Position numbers and translations under genes: made by a program. Below, piece by piece: positions 9,779 to 52,907 of a stretch of 64,000 nt of DNA. Origin of the DNA: an uncultured Lachnospiraceae bacterium (GTDB taxonomy: Bacteria; Bacillota; Clostridia; Lachnospirales; Lachnospiraceae); the NCBI GenBank assembly GCA_964619785.1, contig CAZUGH010000002.1, positions 11,355 through 75,354 of the forward strand, in the 5' to 3' direction. A model generated the notes under the pieces. It was not told where the DNA came from. It saw only the letters and a list, made by a program, of their open reading frames with translations, and did not search any database. Numbering within the stretch: position 1 is the first letter of the stretch; each line of letters begins with the position of its first letter.

Positions 9779-11128
9779 ATGAAATATTTTGGAACAGATG
9801 GTTTCCGCGGTGAAGCCAATGTAGACTTAAGAGTAGATCACGCCTACAAGGTAGGTCGTTTTTTGGGAAATTATTATAAAAAAGATGGTCACAAAGTGAA
9901 AGTGGCTATCGGCAAGGACACGAGAAGATCAAGTTATATGTTCGAGACAGCATTAGCAGCAGGACTGACTGCGAGTGGAGCAGATGTATTCCAGTTGCAT
10001 GTTACACCGACGCCAAGTGTTTCTTATGTGGTACGTACAGAAGGTTTTGATTGTGGTATCATGATTTCAGCGAGTCACAATCCATTTTATGATAATGGAA
10101 TCAAGGTGATTAATGGGGAAGGTTATAAGCTTGAACCGGAAGTCGAAGAGAAGATTGAAGCCTATATTGATGGAACGACAGAAGAGATTCCATTAGCAAA
10201 ACGTGCTGATATCGGAAGTGTTACTGATTTTTCTGTAGGACGTAATCGCTATATCGGTTATCTGATGTCATTGGCATCTCGTTCTTTTAAGAATAAGACA
10301 GTTGCTCTTGATTTGTCCAATGGATCTGCTTCAAGTGTGGCAAAAGGTGTATTTGATGCATTGGGTGCGAAGACGCTTGTTATCAATAGTGAGCCAAATG
10401 GTGTGAATATTAATAAGGATTGTGGTTCTACTCATATTGAAGTTCTGCAGAAGTTTGTAAAAGAGACAGGAGCCGATGTGGGATTTGCCTATGATGGTGA
10501 TGCCGACCGCTGCTTGGCAGTGGATGATAAAGGCGAGATTGTAGATGGTGACCATATTTTATACCTATGTGGTACATATCTTAAGGATAAAGGTGAACTG
10601 AATAATGATACCGTTGTTACAACGATTATGAGTAACATGGGATTATATAAAGCATTTGATGCAGCTGGTGTTCGCTATGAGAAGACAGCAGTTGGAGATA
10701 AGTATGTATGCGAGAACATGATGCAGAATAATCATTCTCTCGGTGGAGAACAGTCTGGGCACATCATTTTCAGTAAATATGCAGTAACAGGTGATGGTAT
10801 TCTAACATCCCTTATGATTATGGAAGTGATTCAGGAGATGAAGCGACCATTATCAGAATTGATGACAGGCCTTCACATTTATCCACAGTTATTGGTGAAT
10901 GTAAAAGTGAAAGACAAAGCAGCAGCTAGAGAAGATAAGGATGTCAAAGCGATTGCGAAAGAAGTAGAGGAAAAGCTTGGAGACGAGGGAAGACTTCTTC
11001 TTCGTGAAAGCGGAACAGAACCATTGGTTCGTGTTATGGTAGAGGCAGAGACCGATGCTATTTGCAAGACTTGTACCGATAAGGTGGTTGCTGTTTTGAG
11101 AGATAAAGGACACGTTGTTGAAGAGTGA
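9779..11128 (+). CDS. glmM: Phosphoglucosamine mutase
   Basis: MKYFGTDGFRG, phosphoserine loop SASHNPFYDNGIK, DGDADR, GGEQSGH. ATG 9779 follows GGAGGGA; 9767 is the longest ORF. Confidence 0.92.
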   Translation: MKYFGTDGFRGEANVDLRVDHAYKVGRFLGNYYKKDGHKVKVAIGKDTRRSSYMFETALAAGLTASGADVFQLHVTPTPSVSYVVRTEGFDCGIMISASHNPFYDNGIKVINGEGYKLEPEVEEKIEAYIDGTTEEIPLAKRADIGSVTDFSVGRNRYIGYLMSLASRSFKNKTVALDLSNGSASSVAKGVFDALGAKTLVINSEPNGVNINKDCGSTHIEVLQKFVKETGADVGFAYDGDADRCLAVDDKGEIVDGDHILYLCGTYLKDKGELNNDTVVTTIMSNMGLYKAFDAAGVRYEKTAVGDKYVCENMMQNNHSLGGEQSGHIIFSKYAVTGDGILTSLMIMEVIQEMKRPLSELMTGLHIYPQLLVNVKVKDKAAAREDKDVKAIAKEVEEKLGDEGRLLLRESGTEPLVRVMVEAETDAICKTCTDKVVAVLRDKGHVVEE

Positions 11129-45849: not shown

Positions 45850-48798
45850 ATGAGAAGAATTCATATAGCTTTTATTTTCGCACTCTTTTTTATTATGCTG
45901 CTGCCCGGGAATCTTGCTAAAGCAGTAGATGTAAATAGTTACTCTTCGTTGAAAAAGGAGTTAGAGAAGAGTGGGAGTGCAACGGTAAATGTTACGGAGA
46001 AGATATTAATTAAGGGTGTTATTCATGTTAGGGGTACGAAGACTCTCAATGGCATGAACAATAATCTAAATCGTGATGCCACAACGGGAAAGCAGTATTA
46101 TGGTGTGTTGTTTCAGGTTGGTAAAGCGGGCGCCTACACAGGTCATCTGACAGTTAAGAATGCTGTAATTAGTGGGAATGGACAAGCAGCTTCCATGTCA
46201 GCTGGGGTTGATGGAAGATTGATTCGGGTTGTAGAGCCAGGTTCTTCCTTGGTGTTGACGGATGGTGCTGTTCTTAAGAATAATTTTAATTCGGATCGAA
46301 TAATGGATGGCGGTGGTGGAGTCACGGTACTGAATGGATGCACTGCCGAGATGAGAGGCAGTAGTCAGATTATTTCGAATCGTTCTAAGACAGGTGGTGC
46401 GGCCATTCGTGTCGAAGCCGGAGGTTCGTTTACACTGACAAACGGGTTGATTCAAGGAAACCAAGTGAATCAGTATCAGCTTGATGATATATATGGTGGG
46501 CTTGGAGGTGCCATTCACAATTTTGGTTATGTTGAGATTAAGAAAGGTGAGATTCTTGGGAATGTCGCTAACGGAGATGGTGTCAATGGTGGTCTCGGTG
46601 GTGGAATCTATAATCAAGGTGAACTTGTGATTGCGTCAGGTACGATACAAGGGAATCTGGCATCTTTAGGTGGCGGAGCTATTTATTCAAGTGGAAGTAG
46701 AAGCCTTACGCAAATAAAAGAAGGAAGTATTGTGAAAAATACTTGTGGAGATTGCGGTGGTGGCTTATTTATTAATAATGGTGGACGATTGCTTTTTGAA
46801 GGTGGTGAGATAGGTGGCAACCAGGCAGGAACGGGTGGCGGTGTGTATCTCAGTAAACAAGAGACACGAATGGAGATGAAAGGTGGATGGATTCATGGCA
46901 ATGTAGCAAGTAAGTCAACGAATCTAACAGGTGGTGGCCTTCGTGTCAATGGTGCTACAGCAGAGATTAGTGGTGGTGTGTTTGGAATCAATCGCCAGAA
47001 TAGAAAAAGCGATAATTTATGCCCGAACACAGGAAAACCGAATTATTCAAGTCTGATATATAATAGTGGCATTGTTCGTGCAACTGGTGGCAATCTATAT
47101 AGTAGTGCAGTTGGAGCAAGGGCAATTGTTAATATGGGTGAGATGGAACTAAAATTTAAACGAAATTGTGGTATTCATGGAGAGGGTGAGGTAGCAGTTC
47201 TTAATTATGCAACACTCATGTATGGGTCTATATCAGGTTCAGCACCATTAATTGATGGAAGTTTCAAAATTGGAGTCGAGAATAATCAGCAAATGGTCAT
47301 GAGACAAGGAAATATAAGCGCGAGCATAGATGGAATTAAGAATCATGGTGATCTTGAGATATATGGTGGCGCTTCTCATGGAAGACGCGGTGTCAACGCA
47401 TTGGCTGGTAGTTTGGTACTAGGTGGAAAAGTGACGATTCCATCGATTTATCTTGCGAGTGGTCAGATTGTCCACGTTGCAGGAGGAGTAGATATTAACG
47501 GGGGTTTACTTTGCCCAGACGATTATTATGAGGGTAGAGTACTTGTTCGTTCGGATATCGAAGACGCTGATTTCAACATGAAGCAGTTTCGGTTAGAACC
47601 TAAGAATCCTTATCGCATGCAAAGTGCAGGTAAAAAACTATATATTACGGTTATTCGATATATTGTGGAATTTGATAGTAATGGTGGAAAGGGCTACACA
47701 GATTCGATTGTTTCGATAGCAGGAATGCCAATTACGATGCCAAAGTGTGGATTTACTCGAAATGGCTGTGTATTCCTTGGATGGTCAAAGGTGAGGTTTT
47801 CGAAACCGGTCTTGAGTGAGAAACCAGATTATAAGGAAAAAGAGATTGTACCATCATTAGCAGATGAGAAGACAGTCATAACATTGTATGCTGTATGGGG
47901 GTCTGTTCCTACATTTAAACCAGTATATTCGGATGTGGAATTCTATCAGGGTGAATATGTTGATGAGAAGATTTTAAAGAGTCTTGTAACGGTTTATGAT
48001 GAGCTAGATGGAGATATCAGTCAAAGTGTACGAATTGAAAAGATTATATATCGAGGGGCGATTGCGTATTATCCGATTCATCTTGACACAGCAGCAAAAT
48101 ACATTGGCACAATTCAGATTCATTATAAATGTAAGAATCAAAGTGGAAGAAATACAGACTACTATTTATCGGTAAGATTGAAAGAGAATCAACCGCCTAG
48201 TATAAAAGGAAAAGATCGTTATTACTTTTTGGATGAACTAAAAGAGATGACGATTGATGAGGTGGTAGACGAACTAACTACAACTGTAGAATTTCGGGAT
48301 GACGTAGAATCTAAAGATGAATTAATGAAAGATTATTATATCAATAAGATTGATATTCCGATTGATCGAACAGGAAATCATACAGTATATATTAACGTGC
48401 GAGACCAATATGGACATCGTTTCTATATGAAACCAAATGAAAAGAAGAGGTATGGCTCAGGGAAAACAAGTGATTGTCTCTTTTTATTCCATATCATTGC
48501 TAATACACAAAATCATGATGAGTTCGCTGGGTATGTACGATTTATATCTAGTGCTCATATAGATACGCTTAGTCAATCTTCCAAATGGAGAGGTACTCAA
48601 TTAAGCCAACGAATCAAAACGTATTTTGAGAGAGAAACAGTGGGTGGTAATTGTGCTTCGATTTGGTGTTTTGATAAAACACAGATTGATGCAGTACAAG
48701 CGTTGAATGAAAGTGGTGAGGATCTGTTTGGAGAAGAGGCTAATCTGAATTTTCTCCAACGGTTTCACCCAATAATTCGAAAGGAGGATGAAGAATGA
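45850..48798 (+). CDS. Secreted 982-aa beta-helix / Listeria-Bacteroides repeat / Ig-like multidomain protein (candidate adhesin)
   Basis: Signal peptide ...PGNLAKA-VD. Eight tandem Gly-rich turns (GGxGGAI/GGGIY ... G.I.GN.A). VEFDSNGG...GFTRNGCVFLGWS...TLYAVW repeat. Two D..DGDIS-type Ig-like modules. No LPXTG motif and no C-terminal TM. Confidence 0.7.
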   Translation: MRRIHIAFIFALFFIMLLPGNLAKAVDVNSYSSLKKELEKSGSATVNVTEKILIKGVIHVRGTKTLNGMNNNLNRDATTGKQYYGVLFQVGKAGAYTGHLTVKNAVISGNGQAASMSAGVDGRLIRVVEPGSSLVLTDGAVLKNNFNSDRIMDGGGGVTVLNGCTAEMRGSSQIISNRSKTGGAAIRVEAGGSFTLTNGLIQGNQVNQYQLDDIYGGLGGAIHNFGYVEIKKGEILGNVANGDGVNGGLGGGIYNQGELVIASGTIQGNLASLGGGAIYSSGSRSLTQIKEGSIVKNTCGDCGGGLFINNGGRLLFEGGEIGGNQAGTGGGVYLSKQETRMEMKGGWIHGNVASKSTNLTGGGLRVNGATAEISGGVFGINRQNRKSDNLCPNTGKPNYSSLIYNSGIVRATGGNLYSSAVGARAIVNMGEMELKFKRNCGIHGEGEVAVLNYATLMYGSISGSAPLIDGSFKIGVENNQQMVMRQGNISASIDGIKNHGDLEIYGGASHGRRGVNALAGSLVLGGKVTIPSIYLASGQIVHVAGGVDINGGLLCPDDYYEGRVLVRSDIEDADFNMKQFRLEPKNPYRMQSAGKKLYITVIRYIVEFDSNGGKGYTDSIVSIAGMPITMPKCGFTRNGCVFLGWSKVRFSKPVLSEKPDYKEKEIVPSLADEKTVITLYAVWGSVPTFKPVYSDVEFYQGEYVDEKILKSLVTVYDELDGDISQSVRIEKIIYRGAIAYYPIHLDTAAKYIGTIQIHYKCKNQSGRNTDYYLSVRLKENQPPSIKGKDRYYFLDELKEMTIDEVVDELTTTVEFRDDVESKDELMKDYYINKIDIPIDRTGNHTVYINVRDQYGHRFYMKPNEKKRYGSGKTSDCLFLFHIIANTQNHDEFAGYVRFISSAHIDTLSQSSKWRGTQLSQRIKTYFERETVGGNCASIWCFDKTQIDAVQALNESGEDLFGEEANLNFLQRFHPIIRKEDEE

Positions 48799-48977
48799 CA
48801 GAGTTTCTTCAAGAGTATGGCAAGATTATTGTTGCTGTTCTGGTTATCTTAGCTTTGGTTGCGATTGTTGTATTATTCCGTACACCGATGTCTAATATGT
48901 TTGCCAATCTATTCAACAATTTCTTTTCTTCAGTAGGTTCAAGTGCTGGTTTGCCTGCACCAACCTTTAATCCATAA
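48795..48977 (+). CDS. Flp-like (type IVb/Tad) pilin candidate, leaderless; probable major subunit
   Basis: 60 aa starting MTEFLQEYGKIIVAVLVILALVAIVVLF. AAGGAGGA RBS. The ATG overlaps the upstream stop (ATGA). In-frame TGA 2 codons upstream. Confidence 0.55.
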   Translation: MTEFLQEYGKIIVAVLVILALVAIVVLFRTPMSNMFANLFNNFFSSVGSSAGLPAPTFNP

Positions 48978-48988
48978 GGAATTATTTT

Positions 48989-49016
48989 GCCGGGTGGATT
49001 TACCCATCCGGCCTTT
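48989..49016 (+). terminator. Hairpin after the pilin gene (possible partial terminator/attenuator)
   Basis: GCCGGGTGG-ATTTAC-CCATCCGGC (one G-U) followed by CTTT. Confidence 0.35.
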
Positions 49017-49061
49017 GAAAAAGAATACACAAGTGTGATATACACCTTAGATGGAGGACAT

Positions 49062-50126
49062 ATGAGTGATTTTCATAAAAAGTATTTATTAAATCGGGAA
49101 GATTACGGTTTGCTATATAACTATGTAGTAGATGATAATGTGACAGATATTAATTGGAATGGGAGGCAGCTGTGGATTGATGACTTGAGTAAAGGCAGAT
49201 ATCTGGCACCTGAAGTATTAGAGCCTGTATTTGTTGAGCGGTTATCTACTTTGATTTCGAATGTAGTTAGTGTCCCATATAATCGCATGAGTCCAGTTCT
49301 TGAAGCAGAGACAGAAGAGTTGAGAATTAGTATTGTGCATGGAAGTGTGGCACATTCTGGTGCAACGATTTCATTGCGTAAGATTCCTGCTGTTCGACGA
49401 ATGACGAGTGAGGATATGATTCACTCTGGATATTGCGATAAAGAGGTTCGAAACTTCCTAGTGAATTGCATTCGTGCACACTTTAATATTGCGATATGTG
49501 GCATGCCAGGTGCTGGCAAGACGGAACTTCTCAAGTTCTTGACACAATATATACCGGATACAGAACGAGTGATTACCATTGAAGACACACTAGAAATACA
49601 TTATCAGAAGATTAATCCTAACAAGGATTGTGTAGAGATGAAGGTCGCGGAGCAATTCACCTACACAGATGCAATTAAGGCGTGTCTGCGACAGCTTCCC
49701 AAGTGGATTATTCTATCAGAAGCACGCTCAACAGAGGTACGATATTTATTGGAGTGCTTTAGCACAGGTACATATGGAATGACGACGTTGCATACGGATG
49801 ATGTTCGGAATATCCCGGATCGGATAAAGAACATGGCTGGTGGTGAGATGGATGCCACACGTATTGTGAATGATACATATCGTTTTATTAATGTGGGGAT
49901 TTTAGTGAAAAGTATTGTTGAAAAGGATGGAAGAATTACAAGAAGGATTGAACAGATTGGTGTGTTTGACCGCTTCGGAGCAGATTTGATGCATGTGGTG
50001 AACCAGGTAAAGATGATTGTAGATAATGGAACCATTGTTGGTCGAGATATTGACCATAACATAGAGAGACGATTTCATGAGATGGGGATAGATAATCCGT
50101 TTGTGAGGGAGGGATTTGTTGGATAA
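49062..50126 (+). CDS. CpaF/TadA/VirB11-family type IV filament secretion ATPase
   Basis: Walker A CGMPGAGKTELL, Asp box RVITIEDTLEI, Walker B-like WIILSEARSTE, His box GMTTLHTDD. ATG 49062 is 4 nt after GGAGGA. Confidence 0.85.
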   Translation: MSDFHKKYLLNREDYGLLYNYVVDDNVTDINWNGRQLWIDDLSKGRYLAPEVLEPVFVERLSTLISNVVSVPYNRMSPVLEAETEELRISIVHGSVAHSGATISLRKIPAVRRMTSEDMIHSGYCDKEVRNFLVNCIRAHFNIAICGMPGAGKTELLKFLTQYIPDTERVITIEDTLEIHYQKINPNKDCVEMKVAEQFTYTDAIKACLRQLPKWIILSEARSTEVRYLLECFSTGTYGMTTLHTDDVRNIPDRIKNMAGGEMDATRIVNDTYRFINVGILVKSIVEKDGRITRRIEQIGVFDRFGADLMHVVNQVKMIVDNGTIVGRDIDHNIERRFHEMGIDNPFVREGFVG

Positions 50127-51435
50127 TCAATGGAGAGGTCGAATAATACGCTTTGGCATTACCGTTATTGGTGTATTGTTGGTGATGATGATTTATGAAT
50201 TGTGGTGGTGGTGTGGTCTGGGATTGGGGGTTATAGCTCTTTTTGCTGTACCACGAATGAATTATTATCGTAGAAAATCACGCGAGGAAGAGCAAGTATA
50301 TCACCAGGTGACAACATATATGGAACAACTTCTGTGTTCATATAAGAGAACAGGACAGATATTGCCTTCCTTACAGGATTGTGTGAGTATTTTTCAAGAT
50401 GATGATATGAAACAGACGATACTTAAGACAATACATGTTATGAGGACTGGAGAAGGTGTTGAGGATGGAGATATTACCAAGTCTGCTTTTGAGATTATGG
50501 AGAGAGCATATCCGAGTCGGCGTATGAAGATGATTCATAGCTTTATTTGTCAGGCAGAAGCCACTGGTGGTGAGCGAGAAGATGCATTAGATATTTTGTT
50601 AGAGGAGATTCAGCTTTGGAGACAAAGGACACAACTTTATCAGAAGAAAAAGTCATTTATTCGTATTGATACTATGATTGCCGTGGGACTCTCTGCATTG
50701 ATGTGTTATATCTCAAAGCTTTTGACGCCATCCGAATTGGGTATTCGATTACCTGAAACAATGTTATATCAGATTGCTACATCAGTTGTTTTAGGGGCAT
50801 TTGTAGGCACCATTGTATTGGTGTGGAAGAAGCTTACGGGAAGCTGGTTAGATTCAGATGAGATGGTAACGGAGAAACAAGAGCAGAGTATGGATAAGCA
50901 GTATGATATCTTGAAAGGGCATATTGAGACAAAGTCTAGAATTAAGCACAACTTGGCATTGAGAATTTGTCGACGTGAGGTTGAGAAAATATATCCTTAC
51001 TGGCTTTTATCCGTTACATTACAGATGCAGACAGAGAGTGTTTATTCGGCAATTGAAAAATCCTGTCATTCCATAGCAGGAATTTTTAAACGGGAAGTAG
51101 GAGTGTTATTAGAGGAGATATATCAGGAGCCATCTGCTTTACAACCGTACCTAAATTTTTTTCAGGAGTTATCCATACCAGAGGTACAGACAGGAATGAA
51201 AATACTTTACTCTGTTTGTCAAAACGGTTATGAGGATTCGAGAAGACAGTTGGACTTTTTGATTTCAAACAATAACCAGTGCATGGATCGTAGTCAATCT
51301 CATCATTATGAAAACCAAGTGGCGGGCCTATCAATGCTGAAGCATATGCCAATGATGATTGCATGCGTCAAGTTGTTAGCTGATTTGGTGAATTTGCTAG
51401 CACTTACCATGGGAATGTTTCAACAGATTGTTTGA
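50116..51435 (+). CDS. Polytopic membrane protein, candidate fused TadB/TadC (GspF-like) platform
   Basis: 11-nt overlap with the ATPase gene. Topology is 2 TM, then about 130 aa soluble, 2 TM, about 170 aa soluble, and a C-terminal TM. No sequence motif recognised; call rests on position and architecture. Confidence 0.45.
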   Translation: MLDNQWRGRIIRFGITVIGVLLVMMIYELWWWCGLGLGVIALFAVPRMNYYRRKSREEEQVYHQVTTYMEQLLCSYKRTGQILPSLQDCVSIFQDDDMKQTILKTIHVMRTGEGVEDGDITKSAFEIMERAYPSRRMKMIHSFICQAEATGGEREDALDILLEEIQLWRQRTQLYQKKKSFIRIDTMIAVGLSALMCYISKLLTPSELGIRLPETMLYQIATSVVLGAFVGTIVLVWKKLTGSWLDSDEMVTEKQEQSMDKQYDILKGHIETKSRIKHNLALRICRREVEKIYPYWLLSVTLQMQTESVYSAIEKSCHSIAGIFKREVGVLLEEIYQEPSALQPYLNFFQELSIPEVQTGMKILYSVCQNGYEDSRRQLDFLISNNNQCMDRSQSHHYENQVAGLSMLKHMPMMIACVKLLADLVNLLALTMGMFQQIV

Positions 51436-51463
51436 GCAACAAAATGCTCGGAAATGAGGGAGT

Positions 51464-51574
51464 ATGGAAGAATTTATAGAAGAATATGGTGAAATGTTAA
51501 TTATGACATTGATGGGCTCTGGAATGTTAGCCATTTTTATGGGACTAGCAAAGATGATTGGAGAAATGTTTTGA
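51464..51574 (+). CDS. 36-aa Flp-like mini-pilin candidate (not in the ORF track)
   Basis: Sequence MEEFIEEYGEMLIMTLMGSGMLAIFMGLAKMIGEMF. GAGGGAG RBS. In-frame TGA 3 codons upstream. Confidence 0.5.
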   Translation: MEEFIEEYGEMLIMTLMGSGMLAIFMGLAKMIGEMF

Positions 51575-51589
51575 CAGGGAGGATAGATT

Positions 51590-51739
51590 GTGAGTGAATG
51601 GATTGCAGAGTATGGACGTTTGATTATCATGGCGTTAATTGGAATTTTAATTATGTCGGTCATTATATTTATGTGGCAATATCTGGGATTTTTCATGAAT
51701 GCTTTGGGTGATTCACTGATGGGAGGGAATGCTTTGTGA
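51590..51739 (+). CDS. 49-aa Flp-like pilin candidate (not in the ORF track)
   Basis: GTG start 6 nt after AGGGAGGA. Sequence (M)SEWIAEYGRLIIMALIGILIMSVIIFMWQYLGFFMNALGDSLMGGNAL. The stop overlaps the next start (GTGA). Confidence 0.5.
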   Translation: MSEWIAEYGRLIIMALIGILIMSVIIFMWQYLGFFMNALGDSLMGGNAL

Positions 51740-52188
51740 GTACGTTGATTCGACAATATGGACTTGTTATGATGGCAGTACTGATTGGGATTTTTCTTAT
51801 TTGTGGCGTATATCAAACGTTTCAAAATGAATGGGAGAAGACAGGTGTGATTGCAGATGGTAAACAAATGGAATTCGAGGGAAGGGCATCAACTGGCGGA
51901 GGGTATCCGATACTTAAAACACAAGATTGTCAAGTAAAGGTTGGTGACGTATTGGATGTGAGAGATTTAGCTCATGCCGCTGATGTAGATGGAAAAGATT
52001 TGAGCAAAGAGATTACCTATAAAGAGATTTCAGGTAATCTTCTTGGTAAAGATGGTAAGTCTTACTTGATTGATACGACAAAAGAGGGTGTATCGTGGCT
52101 TCAATTTCAAGTAAAAGGAAAGAGTGGTCTAGTTACTTGTAAGGAAGCTATCGTTATCGTGGATTGGAGGAAGAGTAAACAACTATGA
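51736..52188 (+). CDS. Pilin-like N-terminus fused to an Ig-like domain (candidate minor pilin)
   Basis: (M)STLIRQYGLVMMAVLIGIFLICG N-terminus. The C-terminal part has VGDVLDVRDL..AADVDGKDLSKEITY, resembling the modules in the 982-aa protein. Confidence 0.5.
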   Translation: MSTLIRQYGLVMMAVLIGIFLICGVYQTFQNEWEKTGVIADGKQMEFEGRASTGGGYPILKTQDCQVKVGDVLDVRDLAHAADVDGKDLSKEITYKEISGNLLGKDGKSYLIDTTKEGVSWLQFQVKGKSGLVTCKEAIVIVDWRKSKQL

Positions 52189-52511
52189 GAATGATGATTG
52201 AGCATTTTATTACTTTTTTTCTACTGTTAGTATTTGTTTGGATTGGTGTTATGTATGTCATGCAAAACCTGTCCTATTCTAGTGCAAGACAATACCATAG
52301 TGGAGTTGTTAATCAAATTGAGGATAGCAATTTTTCAGAAGATATCATCGCGGAATGCAAGGATAAGGCAGAAAAGGTTGGATATGATTTAAATATTGAA
52401 CGATATTACAATGGGACTAATCAGGATGCTATGGTGACACTTTCTTTTATTTATGAGATTCCCATACTTCATACACAAAAGACTTATTCAATACAAGGCT
52501 ATGCTAGATAG
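52185..52511 (+). CDS. Pseudopilin-like small protein
   Basis: MRMMIEHFITFFLLLVFVWIGVMYV N-terminus is a degenerate version of the shared motif. ATGA overlap with the upstream gene. Confidence 0.4.
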   Translation: MRMMIEHFITFFLLLVFVWIGVMYVMQNLSYSSARQYHSGVVNQIEDSNFSEDIIAECKDKAEKVGYDLNIERYYNGTNQDAMVTLSFIYEIPILHTQKTYSIQGYAR

Positions 52512-52526
52512 GAATGGAGGAAGTTT

Positions 52527-52907
52527 ATGAAAAGTATAATGATATCATTTATTTGTGTACTTTGCTTACTCTTTACCGTTCAAGCACATTCCGATATAAC
52601 GAGCTACTCGGTTCGAAAGGGAGAACTACAGGATGCACTAGGAGTTGCGATGAGTCAGACAATGAGAGAGTGTATGGTTCAGGGAAGTTATGGCATTGTA
52701 GATGAGAAAACTTTTACAGCAGCATTTTTACGAAGTTTATTGAGTAAAGTGAATTCAGATGGGGAAATAACAGTGAAGATTGTGACGTTAGATATGGAAG
52801 AAGGATTTTTAGATGTGGAAGTGATTCAGAAATATCAAGATTATATCGGTAAAGAGCGAGAACTCAAACTGAGAAGAACTGTGATATTAGAAGAACCGAC
52901 CCTATAA
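52527..52907 (+). CDS. N-terminally anchored or secreted small protein, last gene of the cluster
   Basis: GGAGGA RBS. Hydrophobic N-terminus MKSIMISFICVLCLLFTVQAHS. Preferred over the overlapping ORF 52514-52705. Confidence 0.4.
   Translation: MKSIMISFICVLCLLFTVQAHSDITSYSVRKGELQDALGVAMSQTMRECMVQGSYGIVDEKTFTAAFLRSLLSKVNSDGEITVKIVTLDMEEGFLDVEVIQKYQDYIGKERELKLRRTVILEEPTL

Follow-up and report, generated by a model that had tools for sequence, protein, structure and literature searches.

The question raised by this locus is whether two very short reading frames inside a pilus-like operon are genes and, if so, what kind of protein they encode. The operon lies in a stretch of 64,000 nucleotides (nt) from an uncultured Lachnospiraceae bacterium (GenBank assembly GCA_964619785.1, contig CAZUGH010000002.1, positions 11,355 to 75,354 of the forward strand), which is called the window below. 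The two frames, small gene 1 (s1) and small gene 2 (s2), predict proteins of 36 and 49 amino acids (aa) and follow the gene of a polytopic membrane protein of 439 aa. The answer favoured here, with somewhat more confidence than doubt, is that s1 and s2 are translated, conserved miniature Flp-type pilin paralogues of a Tad-like operon, serving as low-abundance minor pilins or priming subunits and carrying a leader that ends in glycine 9 (Gly9).

Position and conservation of the two small genes

The initial annotation had described both frames as genes that were missed. Reading of the sequence and the open reading frame (ORF) listing returned the same coordinates (Table 1), lengths and Shine-Dalgarno sites, and the same GTGA overlap between the stop codon of s2 and the GTG start of the following gene for a 150-aa protein. 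The distance from GGAGG to the GTG of s2 is 7 nt, an ideal spacing. The word missed applies only to an ORF track with a cut-off of 60 aa, as public annotations already list both genes. The exact proteins, MEEFIEEYGEMLIMTLMGSGMLAIFMGLAKMIGEMF for s1 and (M)SEWIAEYGRLIIMALIGILIMSVIIFMWQYLGFFMNALGDSLMGGNAL for s2, are present in the public collection (NCBI, ENA and Logan; 9-10 contigs), s2 together with four variants, and gene callers predict both on independent metagenome contigs. The two proteins are already predicted as hypothetical proteins, without any family model.

Relatives were sought by synteny, since a word-based search with s2 matched only its own 90% cluster, the divergence being too fast. 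Alignment of the 439-aa membrane protein gave 12 loci, from metagenome-assembled genomes of Eubacterium/Lachnospira and from the cultured [Lactobacillus] rogosae CLA-AA-H255. Three further loci came from contigs identified with a profile search against 1.84 billion representative proteins, and two more, one of them from another family, from a scan of the class. A counterpart of s1 with 32-36 aa was found in all 15 related loci with readable DNA 3' of the platform-like gene, usually as the first gene after it. Each begins with M-[D/E/K]-x-φ-φ-[E/D]-x-[Y/F/L]-G and continues with a hydrophobic helix. A counterpart of s2 (45-49 aa) was recognised in 12 of these 15 loci; L012 and L014 lack it, and in L065 it was not resolved. 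In locus L013 (7259-7634; the same as L006 9095-9519, minus strand) the platform gene and s1 are separated by a spacer with a repetitive stretch, which gives Lys/Gly/Gln-rich repeats (GQKIGTKDWDKRLGQKD...) in several frames, and the s1 frame carries ATA, not ATG, GTG or TTG, where a perfect AGGAGG predicts the start.

Both frames have evolved under purifying selection. Nei-Gojobori counts were made on phylogenetically independent close pairs, four for s1 and three for s2. The ratio of the proportions of non-synonymous and synonymous differences (pN/pS) was 0.08, 0.14, 0.08 and 0.40 for s1 and 0.37, 0.46 and 0.36 for s2. The pooled differences were 38.7 synonymous and 30.3 non-synonymous for s1, with 21% synonymous expected (binomial p = 2e-10), and 49.2 synonymous and 66.8 non-synonymous for s2 (synonymous excess p = 3e-7). 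The three strain variants of s2 are each a single base away from the window; they were selected for that difference and are uninformative for the ratio of non-synonymous to synonymous rates (dN/dS). Conservation in related genomes and dN/dS, both proposed as checks in the initial annotation, therefore bear out its view of s1 and s2 as genuine, conserved and co-oriented genes of a pilus-like operon, and their status as genes is settled at the level that computation allows.

It is hardly credible that the frames are chance ORFs in an intergenic spacer, or that an antisense ORF of 156 codons which spans both (Table 1) is the real gene. The sense frames, their starts and their ribosome-binding sites are kept in all lineages, with the strong synonymous excess given above. 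The long antisense frame across both ORFs could suggest otherwise, but of the 12 loci checked it is open only in the window and in the nearest relative, L011, and is interrupted in the other ten. It was rejected as a gene on the ground that it is not conserved across loci, and is a by-product of hydrophobic, AT-rich sense coding. The spacing of the Shine-Dalgarno site of s1 is poor and speaks against the gene, with 1 nt between GAGGGAG and ATG, or 4 nt if the core is GAGG; in the s1 orthologues that were checked, GGAGG-type sites stand 5-8 nt 5' of the start.

The N-terminal motif is also specific to this locus, which again argues against chance ORFs. The genome (2.17 Mb) was scanned in six frames, from every ATG, GTG and TTG, for M-x-x-[FIWLVM]-[ILVF]-x-[EQH]-[YF]-G followed by a hydrophobic core. 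The strict motif with the core occurred three times genome-wide, always at this locus, and did not occur in three codon-block shuffles of the genome. The s1 protein has the motif, but its hydrophobicity of 1.57 is just below the cut of 1.6 used in the scan. Between 48.8 and 52.9 kb no terminator-like site and no Rfam family match was found, and a promoter scan gave matches at the shuffled expectation.

Relationship to the major subunit

The s1 protein consists of the acidic nonapeptide MEEFIEEYG, about 20 hydrophobic residues and a tail of eight residues. The s2 protein has the nonapeptide (M)SEWIAEYG, a transmembrane helix and an amphipathic tail of 18-21 residues. The 60-aa protein encoded 5' of the ATPase gene, the putative major subunit, has the same N-terminal module of nine residues and a membrane helix. 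In hhalign comparisons the major-subunit family was matched by s1 with a probability of 90% (E 2e-6) and by s2 with 96% (E 2e-9), and s1 matched s2 with 94%. As judged from these profiles, s1 and s2 are paralogues of the putative major subunit (54-67 aa) and of each other, by way of the N-terminal module. The initial annotation was correct in pointing to a motif and a transmembrane helix that both share with the 60-aa and 150-aa proteins (hhalign 90-96%). Major and minor pilins of type IV filaments have such a module in common (PMC10191384). Minor pilins are also marked by low abundance and by being needed for initiation; the features of theirs that are seen in s1 and s2 are the N-terminal module of the major subunit and the location in the machinery operon.

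The hydrophobic cores have a mean Kyte-Doolittle value of 1.9-3.1 over 18 residues. Type IV pilins have a helical stretch of 20-25 mainly hydrophobic residues after the leader, and s1 and s2 agree with this; the AlphaFold2 (AF2) model of s2 is one continuous helix from residue 2 to 43 with a predicted local distance difference test (pLDDT) score of 87.5. The mature Tad pilin of Caulobacter is likewise a helix, of 45 residues (PMC10710030). The 60-aa subunit matched the Pfam family Flp1_like with E 1e-4 and 22 bits, below the cut-off of 33.5.

What follows the hydrophobic core differs between the three types of protein. The median tail is 32 residues in the major subunit, about 20 of them polar, 18 residues with 7 polar in s2, and 4 residues with 1 polar in s1, all s1 proteins ending 2-8 residues after the core. 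Because the polar tail is almost absent, s1 should be unable to form a water-exposed filament surface and must, to judge from its composition, either be covered by other subunits or remain within the membrane. The initial annotation rightly described the 36-aa product as hardly more than the N-terminal helix of a pilin. Its suggestion that this is one of the shortest filament subunits did not hold against the tail of the major subunit, and s1, with its 36 residues, is too hydrophobic for a normal filament building block.

The N-terminal motif

The class III signal peptide of type IV pilins is defined by a hydrophilic leader that ends in Gly or Ala (PMC10191384). Whether the nonapeptide corresponds to such a leader or to the mature end of a pilin was assessed with a canonical profile, an alignment of 12 Flp1-like prepilins from the same bacterial family, which was searched against the proteins of the locus. 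The major subunits of the window's clade scored 19-27 bits, the 60-aa subunit 20 bits. Their F-L-Q-E-Y-G aligned with the end of the canonical leader, f-l-e-e-e-d-G, and their helix end and tail (IVVLFRTPMSNMFANLF) aligned with the canonical IVLIFKTKITTIVTNAF. In hhalign comparisons of the majors with canonical Flp1 the offset sets Gly9 on the -1 column, and three lower-scoring alignments (one major, one s1 and one s2) match E-E-[Y/A]-G column for column with e-e-d-G(-1). All of the 13 s1 and 8 major sequences have Gly9, as do 8 of the 11 s2 sequences. Direct hhalign comparison of s1 and s2 with canonical Flp1 was not significant. One canonical prepilin may itself have a leader of nine residues, MEFLSEEDG, if its start is the last upstream Met.

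The initial annotation had read xEYG as Glu5-Tyr6 of a mature Flp pilin. This was not upheld, as the canonical profile puts E-E-[Y/A]-G at the end of the leader and not on the mature EY. On balance the alignments lean towards the nonapeptide being a shortened leader of Flp1 type, with Gly9 as the glycine of the cleavage site. We infer that cleavage there would give mature peptides of about 27 residues for s1 and about 40 for s2.

The pilin-like proteins of two more distant loci, L061 and L063, all start with M-K (MKSFLEEYG, MKTFLEEYG) and so have the basic residue that is missing in the window's clade.

The operon and its machinery

Table 1. Features of the operon in the window (positions in the window) and the canonical Tad locus of the same genome
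Feature	Position	Strand	Length	Remarks
Putative major subunit	48795-48977	+	60 aa	MTEFLQEYGK, transmembrane helix and polar tail of 32 residues; family-defining paralogue
Secretion ATPase, CpaF/TadA-VirB11 class	48987-50126	+		Pfam T2SSE, E 1e-25
Polytopic membrane protein, predicted fused TadB-TadC-type platform	50116-51435	+	439 aa	hhalign via Priestia plasmid
Shine-Dalgarno-like site of s1	51456-51462	+		GAGGGAG; read from sequence
s1	51464-51574	+	36 aa	ATG 51464, TGA 51572-51574; ORF listing
Shine-Dalgarno site of s2	51576-51583	+		AGGGAGGA; read from sequence
s2	51590-51739	+	49 aa	GTG 51590, TGA 51737-51739; ORF listing
Pilin-like protein	51736-52188	+	150 aa	MSTLIRQYG, transmembrane helix and soluble domain
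TadE-like pseudopilin candidate	52185-52511	+	108 aa	starts MRMMIEHF; ORF listing, comparison by eye
Membrane-anchored protein, last operon gene	52527-52907	+	126 aa	ORF listing; position conserved in related loci
Antisense ORF	51397-51867	-	156 codons	spans both small genes
Canonical Tad locus, contig C30	5502-14166 (coordinates of locus L026)			complete

The genes of the operon indicate a divergent Tad-like filament system, related to type IVc. Among solved structures the best relative of the ATPase is CpaF of the Tad pilus (E 2e-20), followed by archaeal GspE and FlaI and then by VirB11; it is 29% identical to the canonical TadA of the same genome. The 439-aa membrane protein had no match in Pfam or NCBIfam and none in a sequence-profile search of the PDB. 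A fold search of the PDB with its AF2 model (pLDDT 83) gave nothing below E 0.07, and the hhalign probability of its family with the genome's own TadB and TadC was below 1%. A tblastn search of plasmids with this protein found one record, Priestia koreensis NZ_CP061869 (locus L067, 5710-7467). The match covers two adjacent genes in a cluster that contains CpaF, a T2SSF-family gene and its neighbour in the position of TadC. The N-terminal half matched the TadB-like Priestia protein, the gene of which has a borderline T2SSF domain (hhalign 96.6%, E 5e-10), and the C-terminal half the TadC-like one (96%, E 4e-9). The 439-aa protein is therefore assigned as a fused platform of TadB-TadC type, by a link that is transitive and detectable only through the P. 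koreensis plasmid. Some members of the platform family have N-terminal extensions with DUF4234 or DUF5684 domains. Of the parts by which a Tad system is recognised, the operon encodes the assembly ATPase of TadA/CpaF type and, by the transitive link only, the TadB/TadC (T2SSF-type) platform; a Pfam scan of all locus proteins found no dedicated peptidase TadV at the locus. Literature searches found no paper on this Tad-like system.

The 108-aa protein had no Pfam match. By eye, its MRMMIEHF looks like the N-terminus of a mature TadE with just a Met in front (compare the TadE-like G/SITVEAS and A/SFTVEAT of contig C30). The TadE-like genes of the locus start with M-K/R-x-I-V-E, for example MKIIVEAS..., which also fits the mature canonical TadE N-terminus by eye. 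In the 150-aa protein Arg6-Gln7 replaces the Glu of the paralogues in the motif; its orthologues in L011, L058, L061 and L063 do have Glu. Capping minor pilins without Glu5 are known from other systems, and the lack of the acidic residue in the 150-aa protein recalls them. In L061 (6594-6785) and L063 (4170-4334) the gene of the putative major subunit comes last in the operon, behind the TadE-like gene, and not 5' of the ATPase gene.

A canonical Tad locus in the same genome and the distribution of the divergent system

The genome also contains a complete canonical Tad locus, so that two Tad-type systems are found in one cell. The canonical locus, on contig C30, encodes two A24 peptidases, a TadZ-like protein, TadA and separate TadB and TadC with T2SSF domains. 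Its Flp1_like prepilin (10288-10476; Pfam E 1e-20, 73 bits) reads MGKFMKDFWEDEEA/IGIVEIILIL..., and two TadE-like proteins have the N-termini G/SITVEA and A/SFTVEA. The two systems have the same functional parts, namely an ATPase, a platform and a small pilin. They differ in the two A24 peptidases, the separate TadB and TadC and the Flp1 prepilin with Glu5 and a leader of 14-16 residues, all found in the canonical locus.

Nearly every genome of the family has a canonical Flp1-like pilin (59 of 61). The divergent system is rare and scattered, with 3 occurrences among 41 relatives and 3 among 399 genomes of the class, and its platform family forms 950 clusters at 50% identity in a metagenome-rich library. 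The Lachnospira genome with loci L007 and L021 has the divergent locus and two A24 peptidase genes, with no Flp1_like (PF16982) match at E <= 1e-5.

Comparison with known filament systems

A close likeness is to the Flp/Flp1 pilins of Tad (type IVc) systems, such as Caulobacter PilA (PMC10710030) and the Flp1_like proteins of Firmicutes (PF16982). These too are tiny single-helix proteins. Like them, s1 and s2 have a short hydrophilic N-terminal segment that ends in Gly and a stretch of about 20 hydrophobic residues behind it, and are encoded together with an ATPase of CpaF/TadA type and a platform of TadB/TadC type; in the 60-aa paralogue the helix end and the tail can be aligned with canonical Flp1. 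Unlike them, s1 and s2 stay below the thresholds of Pfam and NCBIfam, have an N-terminal segment of only nine residues that is acidic and without a basic residue, and lack Glu5 after Gly9. The polar C-terminal patch that makes the surface of the Tad pilus is missing from s1. The two genes stand 3' of the platform gene and not beside the gene of the major pilin, and there is no dedicated peptidase.

The priming or tip minor pilins TadE/TadF of Tad systems, GspH-K of the type II secretion system (T2SS) and ComGD-GG of competence pili (PMC10191384) are likewise several low-copy paralogues that have the N-terminal module of the major subunit and are encoded together after the machinery genes. Loci of Lachnospira type have four such proteins after the platform gene (s1, s2 and two of 120-140 aa), and T2SS and Com also have four core minor pilins, which is an analogy and not evidence. 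The known minor pilins have 100-200 residues or more and folded domains that form a tip complex, whereas s1 and s2 have 32-49 residues and no domain. Another parallel is PilA-N of Geobacter, which, in the summary given in PMC10710030, is a truncated pilin with only the N-terminal helix, the globular part being supplied by PilA-C. It resembles s1 and s2 in being a pilin cut down to its helix that needs partners to cover a hydrophobic surface. It differs in its 65 residues and its type IVa hallmarks (Phe1, Pro22), and no helix-less partner is evident here.

Function of s1 and s2

On the favoured explanation s1 and s2 would enter the membrane by their single helix, and the shared N-terminal signature would be the mark by which they are recognised. 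Assembly would be powered by the CpaF-like ATPase and take place on the fused TadB-TadC platform, with the 60-aa subunit as the bulk of the filament. We infer that s1 and s2 would be incorporated in the filament and have a role in priming; with the pilin-like proteins of 150, 108 and 126 aa they would form a low-copy set that starts, caps or anchors it. A prepilin peptidase encoded elsewhere in the genome would take Gly9 as its -1 residue. Taken at the level of class, s1 and s2 are best described from their sequences as probable Flp-type or minor pilins of unusually small size with an atypical signal region.

Several observations weigh against this explanation. No family match was obtained for s1 and s2 in Pfam, NCBIfam or PHROG, and with Flp1_like (PF16982) and Flp_Fap (PF04964) of Pfam there was none at E <= 1, below the gathering threshold. 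The alignments with Gly9 exactly at -1 reach only 4-8 bits, the stronger ones placing it one column before. Residues 1-9 are hydrophilic and end in Gly9, but in this genome they are acidic and without a basic residue. A class III signal peptide uses positive charge to hold the N-terminus inside the cell, and an acidic segment is atypical of it. The Glu5 of type IV pilins, which is frequent and not obligatory, is absent after Gly9, position +5 being M, A, I or S; a Glu near +5 (Glu6 or Glu7 counted from Met1) is obtained only if there is no leader. The distance of the motif from Met1 is the same in all paralogues and lineages. No A24 peptidase was found in 19 locus stretches by tblastn with three queries, with which the positive control was found. 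In favour of the explanation, such peptidases are present elsewhere in 12 of the 13 genomes carrying the locus, and the peptidase for cleavage at Gly9 would be borrowed from there. The presence or absence of A24 peptidases across the carrier genomes was also tried as a discriminator between a cleaved and an uncleaved motif and did not separate the two. The TadE-like genes of the loci have no glycine before the helix that could be cleaved; since this rules out the usual processing, the Tad-like system may be partly or wholly independent of a peptidase. The closely related and otherwise intact loci L012 (6530-6672) and L014 (7386-7529) carry s1 and not s2, the next gene starting about 10 nt after s1, and s2 is therefore dispensable in at least one lineage. 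The lack of a polar tail in s1 fits a permanently membrane-embedded accessory protein equally well.

This last possibility, in which s1 and perhaps s2 would be a permanent single-pass membrane partner of the platform or the ATPase and not a filament subunit, is judged unlikely, although it is the most serious of the alternatives. Such a partner could be a pilin mimic that occupies or gates the subunit-docking site of the platform, or an anchor of the filament base. It would account for the short end of s1, with nothing to expose to water, for the usual place of its gene directly 3' of the platform gene and their co-occurrence in 15 of 15 loci, and for the stronger constraint on s1 (pN/pS 0.08-0.14 in close pairs) than on s2. 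Against it, s1 has the N-terminal nonapeptide of the putative major subunit, which in type IV filament systems marks substrates and not parts of the machine, and nothing of this kind is listed among the parts of the known Tad, T2SS and Com machines (Table 1 of PMC10191384). The view of the initial annotation, that the motif is the leaderless mature end of an Flp pilin with EY as Glu5-Tyr6, that nothing is cleaved and that the 36-aa protein is polymerised, is improbable. The profile alignments set EEYG on the end of the canonical leader and not on the mature Glu5; moreover, 7 or 8 of the first ten residues would be polar or charged, which is not known of any mature pilin N-terminus, the outside of an s1 polymer would be hydrophobic (compare PMC10710030), and the polar-tailed 60-aa protein is the obvious bulk subunit. 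The anchoring of the motif at Met1, the starts of the TadE-like proteins with their fit by eye to mature TadE and the lack of a peptidase gene in or near any locus would agree with it.

A third alternative takes s1 and s2 as unrelated small hydrophobic peptides with no more than a chance place in the operon; they could be a membrane toxin, a peptide of bacteriocin type or a coat protein like that of inoviruses. In size, hydrophobicity and acidic N-terminus they resemble Pf3-type coat proteins and some type I toxins, and an acidic N-terminus with a transmembrane helix is what an inovirus-type coat protein has. This reading is nevertheless very improbable, given an N-terminus in common with the other pilin-like proteins of the operon and a fixed place in a conserved operon; in addition there is no PHROG match, most s1 proteins have no basic C-terminus, and the context is neither that of a phage nor that of a toxin-antitoxin system.

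The explanation as miniature pilin paralogues can be taken one step further, to a more tentative and somewhat doubtful proposal. In this, s1 would be the smallest pilin-type class yet seen, with 32-36 residues, or about 27 if cleaved, and an obligatory membrane-embedded primer or plug of a widespread, undescribed Tad-like machine. It would amount to a naked hydrophobic helix that bears the N-terminal signature of the system, and the machine would be one with a fused TadB-TadC platform, without its own peptidase and with over 900 metagenomic protein clusters in its platform family.

Significance

The starting point of type IV filament assembly is thought to be a complex of minor pilins that have folded domains. 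In the present case two conserved putative subunits of 32-49 residues lack a domain altogether and are encoded in a Tad-like system with a signal region of just nine residues. If s1 and s2 prime or cap the filament, they would show the minimal pilin that can be recognised by a motor of ATPase and platform. If Gly9 is not cleaved, they would bear on the assembly of type IV filaments without a prepilin peptidase. Common Lachnospiraceae of the gut carry the system, and because one of the carriers, [Lactobacillus] rogosae CLA-AA-H255, is in culture, the question is accessible to laboratory experiments. The main value of the finding lies in the larger, undescribed Tad-like system to which s1 and s2 belong.

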